Shown piece after piece: positions 49,457 through 49,622 of a stretch of 64,000 nt of DNA. Numbering within the stretch: the first letter of the stretch is position 1; the number at the start of each line of letters is the position of its first letter. Location: NCBI RefSeq assembly GCF_003334405.1, contig NZ_QOWM01000007.1; one strand, 5' to 3'. A program made the translations under genes and the position numbers. The notes beneath the pieces were generated by a model. The model was not told where the DNA came from. It saw nothing but the letters and a program-made list of their open reading frames with translations, and searched no databases. The DNA is from Escherichia coli (GTDB lineage: Bacteria > Pseudomonadota > Gammaproteobacteria > Enterobacterales > Enterobacteriaceae).

Positions 49457-49622
49457 TTTAATATCCCTCCGGCGAATTATGCTCACAACCTGAACTTAAC
49501 AGAAAACAATCCGTTCAGGGATACGACGTTTGTATTTTAAGAATCTGACTGCCTGACCCGACGCATTTTACCTCTCCCTATATTCATGCGTCCGGGACAT
49601 AAACATAAATAAGGGCTATGAG

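Follow-up and report, generated by a model that had tools for sequence, protein, structure and literature searches.

The locus examined in this study lies within a 64,000-nucleotide stretch of Escherichia coli DNA, the whole of which is referred to here as the window. It holds the gene of the AraC-family regulator YidL and, divergent from it, the yidK and yidJ genes. To our knowledge, yidL, yidK and yidJ form one of the regulator, transporter and sulfatase sets of E. coli K-12 that are still uncharacterised, and we know of no YidL operator or yidK promoter that has been defined so far. The region 49300-49800 is 100% identical to E. coli K-12. Two genes directly downstream of yidL, at approximately 46136-48566 (K-12 RefSeq annotation, L001 2837-5267), are annotated as pseudogenes: one is of the PTS IIB type and is interrupted by a stop, and the other, a hypothetical gene, carries a frameshift. 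The genes and the two arms of the inverted repeat that is the subject of this study, called P1, are as follows.

48563..49456, minus strand: yidL coding sequence, AraC-family regulator of 297 aa (RefSeq K-12 annotation and list of open reading frames)
49623-51338, plus strand: yidK, sodium:solute symporter family
51335-52828, plus strand: yidJ, sulfatase-like
49489..49495, no strand assigned: P1 left arm CCTGAAC, at -3 to -9 of the yidL promoter and +3 to +9 of the proposed rightward transcript
49513..49519, no strand assigned: P1 right arm GTTCAGG, at -27 to -33 of the yidL promoter; its pairing to the left arm is kept despite sequence change

The P1 repeat in the yidL-yidK spacer

The original prediction was that a 7-bp inverted repeat lies between the divergent yidL and yidKJ genes and that it is a candidate operator of YidL for yidKJ. 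Reading of the sequence and a repeat search confirmed that the repeat exists exactly as claimed, with arms that are 100% complementary and separated by 17 nt. It is located in the 166-bp spacer that runs from the yidL ATG at 49456 (minus strand) to the yidK ATG at 49623 (plus strand), approximately 105-135 bp upstream of the latter. This spacer is a divergent regulatory region, and YidL binds at the locus in vivo (see below).

When the 166-bp spacer was shuffled 5000 times with its dinucleotides preserved, 19.8% of the shuffles contained one or more perfect 7-bp inverted repeats with arms no more than 30 nt apart, and 14% still did so when the limit was set at 20 nt. The window as a whole has 0.65 perfect 7-bp inverted repeats per 166 bp. 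Because approximately 20% of shuffled intergenic regions hold such a repeat, P1 taken alone is at the level of chance. Folding gave z = -0.98 for E. coli P1 in a fixed 46-nt window with DNA parameters; in a hairpin-trimmed window, which was chosen around the repeat, the RNA z was -2.6 on the plus strand and -3.1 on the minus strand.

Within the species, 4729 of 5102 E. coli genomes are identical across 49480-49528 and the variants that were inspected change outside the arms, so variation among these 5102 genomes was too scarce for a test of compensation. The sequence CTGAACTT at 49432-49439 was considered as a third half-site and rejected, as it occurs in the K-12 lineage only; other E. coli have CCGAAC and other genera are without it. 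No intrinsic terminator was detected in a scan of 49350-49750, the P1 loop being 17 nt long with no T run after it, and a search of 49300-49800 against Rfam 15 at an E-value threshold of 10 returned a single irrelevant hit and no RNA family match. Small open reading frames in the spacer, inspected by eye on either strand, were also set aside, as the frame is not kept between Escherichia and Citrobacter.

The yidL promoter and the YidL-bound region

Three features of the yidL promoter, one of which is known only approximately, define the surroundings of P1.

49486, minus strand: yidL transcription start site, mapped by 5'-RACE (PMC3950696); first base of GTG
49501..49493, minus strand: yidL extended -10 element TGtTAAGTT (TGTTAAGTT), in the P1 spacer with a 3-nt overlap with the left arm; ends 7 nt upstream of the RACE start
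49531..49545 (approximate), minus strand: BglJ-RcsB activator box of the yidL promoter, containing TTAAGAAT; centre at about 49538, with borders derived from the published centre

Salscheider et al. (2014, PMC3950696) used 5'-RACE to place the yidL start at the G that opens a GTG once taken for the start codon, both with and without BglJ, and mapped by mutagenesis a BglJ-RcsB box centred 52 bp upstream of this start. The same study found that yidL is repressed by H-NS. The GTG-started form of yidL is 307 aa long (open reading frame 48563-49486). Because the RACE start is at 49486, the P1 arms lie at -3 to -9 and -27 to -33, and P1 overlaps the core promoter of yidL itself. This start also puts both arms outside of the yidL transcript on the minus strand. 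Of 29 genus representatives, 25 have TGnTAnnnT at the position homologous to the extended -10, compared to 7% of shuffles, and the P1 spacer therefore carries a genuine conserved promoter element.

The ChIP-exo data for YidL-8myc (Gao et al. 2021, PMC8464067) list three sites, two of which are repeated identically under another factor. The sole YidL-specific site (NC_000913.2 3858348-3858354, S/N 11.44, RNAP-bound, with yidK given as the nearest gene; dataset file 5 of PMC8464067) comes from one condition, glucose without inducer. According to these data YidL occupies the yidL-yidK locus in vivo, and P1 is not among the mapped sites. The site was converted to window coordinates through the NC_000913.3 coordinates of yidK and yidL, with a shift from NC_000913.2 to NC_000913.3 that we take to be +1977. 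It falls within the 5' part of yidL, along with two further features whose positions are also given relative to K2, a candidate rightward promoter described below.

49408..49414, no strand assigned: in vivo YidL ChIP-exo site, in yidL codons ~15-17
49424..49452, plus strand: direct repeat of TTTTACAT (49424-49431) and TTTTCCAT (49445-49452), 21 bp apart; candidate YidL pair at -63 to -35 of K2, the motif being defined post hoc
49364..49385, no strand assigned: CRP site in yidL codons 24-30, with a perfect TGTGA half-site on the minus strand and a poor second half; centre at about 49374.5, approximately -112 of the K2 start

The second part of the original prediction, that P1 is the YidL operator for yidKJ, fared poorly against these positions. 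The ChIP-exo peak is approximately 75 bp to the left of P1, inside yidL, and P1 itself coincides with the core promoter of yidL, leaving ~105-135 bp to the yidK ATG. The position of P1 at -3 to -33 of yidL would be suited to autorepression but is unsuited to activating a yidK-proximal promoter, for which -35 to -80 would be expected. Additionally, the recognition helices of YidL, one of which reads CSE[ATQP][WY]LRRLF, are near-invariant in 52 orthologues, and these include orthologues with different arms or without the repeat. The half-site conservation expected of a YidL operator was thus not seen, as the arms differ between genera despite nearly constant helices. Co-variation of helix and arms was considered and rejected, since the variation in helix 3 is confined to one pair of positions (A/T/Q/P and W/Y) and does not follow that of the arms. 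The spacing of the arms, measured centre to centre, is variable, at 24 bp in E. coli and ~30-33 bp in other genera, whereas a dimer would call for two half-sites of about 17 bp that are 21 bp apart if direct or about 33 bp apart if inverted; the direct repeats at 49424 and 49445 are a better candidate in this respect. Binding of YidL to P1 is unlikely, and a role of P1 as a sequence-specific YidL operator for yidKJ is not supported.

The remark made with the original prediction that AraC-family proteins more often use direct repeats proved apt, as such repeats are present at 49424-49431 and 49445-49452. They belong to a motif, TTTT[AC]C[AC]T, that has three copies on the plus strand within 150 bp, the third being TTTTACCT at 49566-49573, where orthologues show TTATTCCT; this copy lies in the loop of a second dyad, P2, described below. 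The motif was defined post hoc and has 19 copies in the window against 9 expected. The ChIP-exo site itself sits between the conserved blocks TACAATATTCC and GTAAAAAACGAAAC. A likeness of the ChIP-exo region to the spacer was also looked for and discarded, as ten 16-mers with at least 11 matching positions against 8.3 expected is not significant.

Conservation at the codon level draws attention to the same region. Zero synonymous diversity was found at 11 of the 171 informative yidL codons among 35 genus-level representatives, and all 11 are in codons 2-29. The two main synonymously invariant blocks are codons 10-13 (GTAAAAAACGAA, 49429..49418), which adjoin the ChIP-exo peak, and codons 24-29 (GAAAATGTGATCTCnAGC, 49387..49370), and the direct repeats at 49424-49452 overlap invariant codons 2-4 and 10-13. 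The invariant codons in 49367-49456 (yidL codons 1-30, minus strand) indicate candidate regulatory nucleotide elements within the coding sequence. The CRP site is conserved at synonymous positions in codons 24-29; Footprint-seq detected it in vitro as a weak site (PMC12871828), and yidK is listed as a CRP target by genomic SELEX (PMC3105977).

Orthologous spacers, the P2 dyad and a candidate rightward promoter

A scan of one genome per species found divergent yidL and yidKJ in approximately 53 Enterobacterales species. The spacer is 163-196 bp long in 44 of these and ~84 bp long, without the P1 region, in 8, although the latter species retain yidL and yidKJ. In these 83-84-bp spacers (L021, L026, L027, L033, L037, L038, L051 and L055; Atlantibacter, Pluralibacter and relatives) the stretch from the P1 left arm to the P2 left arm is absent, and there is one small hairpin left with a TAnnnT hexamer in its loop on the yidL strand.

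Arms of the sequence CCTGAAC/GTTCAGG are found in Escherichia, Citrobacter and S. enterica subsp. arizonae. Other genera have different arms, namely CCTGGC/GCCAGG in Pseudocitrobacter, CCTGAG/CTCAGG in Kluyvera, CCTGAAA/TTTCAGG in Trabulsiella, CCCAGA/TCTGGG in Limnobaculum and CCCGG/CCGGG in Enterobacillus, and some genera have longer inner palindromes at this place. The E. coli repeat is thus one version of a dyad that is conserved among these species. The left arm of the dyad can be aligned without gaps to the yidL ATG in all 45 orthologues with a long spacer and is also at a constant distance from the AATTAT of K2, its right arm is at a constant distance from the extended -10 element, and the stretch between the arms varies by 6-9 nt. 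The loop is 15-30 nt where the short outer stem is kept and 6-7 nt where the stem grows inward. With a variable loop and arms that are tied to separate landmarks, a stem-loop would fit these data and a rigid protein dimer would not.

Complementarity of the arms was examined in a covariation test that was not fitted to the structure, in which the left arm was located by its position without gaps and the right arm by its column in a MAFFT alignment. In this structure-agnostic register 69% of the cells at P1 pair, compared with 26-49% in slid registers and 58.7 +/- 1.8% when rows were permuted. With a loop-trimmed alignment, pair counting gave 64.9% against 55.0 +/- 1.8 (0/500) and the covariation score was 0.305 against 0.173 (0/500). 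When one representative per genus was used, there were 6.31 Watson-Crick pairs of 9 between arms of the same species and 5.40 across species (0/5000), whereas six negative controls for this difference ranged from -0.20 to +0.33, one of them reaching 46/3000. The mean fold z of P1 over 41 distinct orthologous sequences was -1.5, with 68% of the values below -1. Because these permutation and shuffle tests, including their controls, ignore phylogeny, the covariation and the compensatory upkeep of base pairs at P1 are regarded as real but moderate. From these alignments, the constraint on P1 appears to be on pairing of the arms and not on their sequence. Internal wobble pairs on the plus strand numbered 17 G.U and 10 A.C at P1 and 10 G.U and 12 A.C at P2; a call of the active strand from wobble pairs or fold energies was abandoned, as there was no usable bias and the lower energies of P2 on the minus strand are probably due to G+U-rich composition.

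The remainder of the spacer contains a second dyad, the candidate promoter K2 and a conserved block next to yidK.

49557..49596, no strand assigned: P2 dyad, CCCGACGCAT and ATGCGTCCGGG separated by 19 nt; adjoins the conserved ACATAA(A/T)CATAAATAAGGGC just upstream of yidK
49452..49480, plus strand: candidate rightward promoter K2, with -35 TTCATT at 49452-49457, a 17-bp spacer and -10 AATTAT at 49475-49480; predicted start at ~49487-49488
49598..49615, plus strand: yidK-proximal conserved block, with CATAAA at 49598-49603 (CATAAT in most genera; a putative alternative -10, 'K1') and the Shine-Dalgarno sequence AAGGG at 49611-49615

P2 directly abuts the conserved ACATAAACATAAATAAGGGC before yidK. 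Its RNA fold is -13.3 kcal/mol (z = -3.6), and the hairpin is kept in all 50 of 50 distinct orthologous spacers, including those of the 84-bp group. The arms vary here as well (CGGGA/TCCCG, GGGGA/TCCCC, CCGGAG/CTCCGG), and their complementarity is greater within species than across by +0.48 pairs (10/3000). P1 and P2 have no common half-site beyond CCYGR. The putative 154-nt leader as a whole folds at -35.1 kcal/mol (z = -2.75). The conserved GCCT at 49551-49554, 5' of P2, is complementary with one G.U to GGGC at 49612-49615 in the Shine-Dalgarno region of yidK, and these two stretches are paired with each other when the putative leader is folded in silico. An anti-Shine-Dalgarno pairing GCCU:GGGC was nevertheless not accepted as evidence, as it is only 4-5 nt long and has a single compensatory case (L022, ACCT/GGGT).

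K2 is the best plus-strand PWM match of the region at 7.1 bits, a score that occurs ~2.3 times per 350 bp, and the mapped yidL promoter was missed by the same scan, so PWM scoring cannot choose among candidate yidK promoters. AAT[TGC]AT with a fixed 17-bp spacer was found in 30 of 36 representatives; the -35 overlaps the yidL start codon and would be conserved for that reason alone. No plus-strand start site for this region was found in the supplementary tables of two studies, one by Cappable-seq and one by in vitro run-off. Since AATTAT precedes the start of the P1 left arm by 8 nt in every species with a long spacer, the P1 hairpin would open at +2 or +3 of a K2 transcript. A CATAAT-like hexamer is found exactly 19 nt before both start codons, CATAAT at 49481..49476 (minus strand) for yidL and CATAAA at 49598-49603 (plus strand) for yidK. 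The one on the yidL side overlaps the AATTAT of the opposite strand by 5 bp, which is a bidirectional -10 geometry.

Possible roles of P1

P1 is assigned here to the yidL promoter and possibly to the yidKJ leader, and not to the mapped YidL site. Because the constraint seems to be on pairing and not on arm sequence, it is proposed that P1 may act as RNA. Specifically, a long yidKJ leader might be transcribed from the conserved rightward promoter TTCATT-17-AATTAT and have P1 as its 5'-terminal stem-loop, a proposal that is made tentatively and with clear reservations. Under this model, the rightward transcript would start at ~49487-49488 from K2 and run through the spacer, giving a leader of ~135 nt, and activator sites would be embedded in the first 30 yidL codons, with the direct repeats at -35 to -63, the YidL ChIP-exo site at ~-75 and the CRP site at ~-112, distances that resemble those of AraC and RhaR sites. 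The P1 hairpin at the 5' terminus would protect the message from decay that depends on the 5' end, and P2 would form a second hairpin in the leader before the ribosome-binding site. Since the yidL -10 lies in the P1 loop on the other strand, RNA polymerase at the yidL promoter and at K2 would be mutually exclusive. However, several observations weigh against this leader. P1 combines a stem of only 5-7 bp with a large loop and is not significant alone in E. coli, and the avoidance of A.C that is normal for a well-constrained RNA helix is not evident at P1 and P2. Both arms fall on real promoter parts, which could explain their conservation in the Escherichia-Citrobacter-Salmonella clade, and the species with an 84-bp spacer have no P1.

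A different view of the same data, which we rate on a par with the leader and would likewise not call probable, is that P1 is a chance repeat. The arms would then be kept as parts of the yidL promoter (the -35 region on one hand; the 3' end of the -10, the discriminator and the start on the other) and their pairing would have no function of its own, with the apparent compensation coming from shared ancestry, chance or template-switch correction of quasi-palindromes in replication. The frequency of such repeats in shuffled spacers (1 in 5), the fixed-window z of -0.98 in E. coli and the overlap of the arms with mapped promoter elements all agree with this. So do the equal frequencies of G.T and A.C mismatches, which are expected of a DNA-level or neutral process, and the inner arm positions in Enterobacteriaceae, which by eye are about equally complementary and non-complementary; moreover, permutation tests of this kind are lenient when the sequences share a phylogeny, and 46/3000 was reached in one control. 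However, chance does not sit well with complementarity that is greater within species than across species and greater than in all six controls, with double substitutions that restore pairing in several lineages, or with the mean fold z of -1.5 over 41 distinct orthologous sequences, 68% of them below -1. Promoter function alone also fails to explain the conservation of the left arm, because the position of this arm relative to the yidL -10 is not fixed (-9 to -3 in E. coli and roughly -1 to +8 elsewhere).

It is unlikely, although a serious alternative, that P1 is a DNA operator at which a dimeric protein, YidL or another repressor, would cover the yidL -10 and start and control yidL instead of yidK. 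A dyad that brackets the -10 and start is in the classical repressor position, CCTGA...TCAGG is kept across most Enterobacteriaceae, and YidL does occupy the locus in vivo. Inverted half-sites are possible for AraC-family dimers, and the outer arms of the long form are ~32 bp apart centre to centre. However, the ChIP-exo peak is ~75 bp away, and the arms have diverged although the recognition helices of YidL have not. The distance between the arms is not constant but differs by 6-12 bp, a half-site common to P1 and P2 does not extend past CCYGR, and the species with 84-bp spacers have yidL and yidKJ without P1.

The proposal of a leader could be extended to the whole spacer, which would then be transcribed rightward as a conserved structured yidKJ leader. 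Besides the covarying hairpins P1 and P2 it would have single-stranded blocks that do not vary and a GCCU:GGGC pairing around P2, by which the ribosome-binding site would be masked. Its start would be at a bidirectional promoter with YidL and CRP sites in the first 30 yidL codons. We consider this extension quite unlikely. If it is true, the operon for the sulfatase and the transporter would have an undescribed cis-regulatory RNA that is riboswitch-like or the target of a protein or small RNA.

Two other readings have very little in their favor. An RNA hairpin in a minus-strand yidL transcript that starts further upstream, which would be 5'-proximal in a yidL leader, is very improbable: the fold is slightly more stable on that strand (-10.2 kcal/mol, z = -3.1), the -10-like TAAAAT (49539..49534) is available upstream and A.C on the plus strand becomes G.U, but the RACE start at 49486 is downstream of both arms with and without BglJ, and TAAAAT overlaps the BglJ-RcsB box. 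A DNA cruciform or hairpin between the divergent promoters, which would sense or absorb supercoiling and thereby hide or expose the yidL -10, would place the -10 in its loop and would account for wobble mismatches that are symmetric between strands. By the established energetics of cruciforms, however, extrusion is very unfavorable when a stem has 5-7 bp and the arms are mostly 15-30 nt apart (17 nt in E. coli), and with a weak fold z under DNA parameters this too is hardly credible.

The collateral result of this study, namely the sites in the first 30 yidL codons and two spacer dyads that tend to stay complementary, is more interesting than P1 itself. The likely YidL and CRP sites shift into the 5' coding region of yidL, which gives the locus an architecture that can be tested. 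If the model of a long leader is true, activator sites would lie in the reading frame of the regulator itself and there would be a new conserved leader RNA; if it is false, P1 would be an ordinary promoter-overlapping dyad of little consequence.

Comparison with known regulatory systems

In the araC-araBAD system, araO1 lies over the araC promoter, the araI1-I2 direct repeats are 21 bp apart and reach the -35, CRP binds upstream, and araO2 is in the araC leader. The yidL locus resembles it in having an AraC-family gene divergent from a sugar-type operon and a dyad-like element over the promoter of the regulator, as well as direct repeats 21 bp apart that end at approximately -35 of the candidate promoter with CRP further upstream. 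Both systems also have sites for the regulator in the transcribed 5' part of its own gene. However, the candidate activator sites at yidL are inside the coding sequence of the regulator. P1 over the yidL promoter is also not conserved in sequence and not at the in vivo YidL site, and the yidL side of the comparison is known from one ChIP-exo peak.

In rhaSR and rhaBAD, RhaR and RhaS bind inverted 17-bp half-sites that are 16-17 bp apart and located at -32 to -82, and CRP binds at -111.5 of rhaSR. Points in common with rhaSR are an AraC-family regulator, which in the rha system is a dimer that uses inverted half-sites, and a CRP site that would be at approximately -112 of the proposed rightward start. 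In contrast, the arms of P1 are 7 bp long, lie at -3 to -33 of yidL (or +3 to +33 of the proposed transcript) and vary in both sequence and spacing.

As for the 5'-terminal stem-loops that make E. coli mRNAs more stable, such as that of the ompA leader, the P1 hairpin would likewise be 2-3 nt from the proposed 5' end and has a compensated stem and a free loop length. It differs from them in its short stem and unusually large loop, the transcription of the P1 strand is only putative, and the conservation of the P1 loop sequence is due to the promoter element of the other strand that lies within it. Finally, bidirectional promoters, which have start sites ~18 bp apart, are matched by the 5-bp overlap of AATTAT (plus strand, 49475-49480) and CATAAT (minus strand, 49481..49476) with predicted starts at ~49487 and ~49469. 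These two starts are predictions, however, and unlike in a bidirectional promoter, the mapped yidL start at 49486 uses the extended -10 in the P1 spacer.
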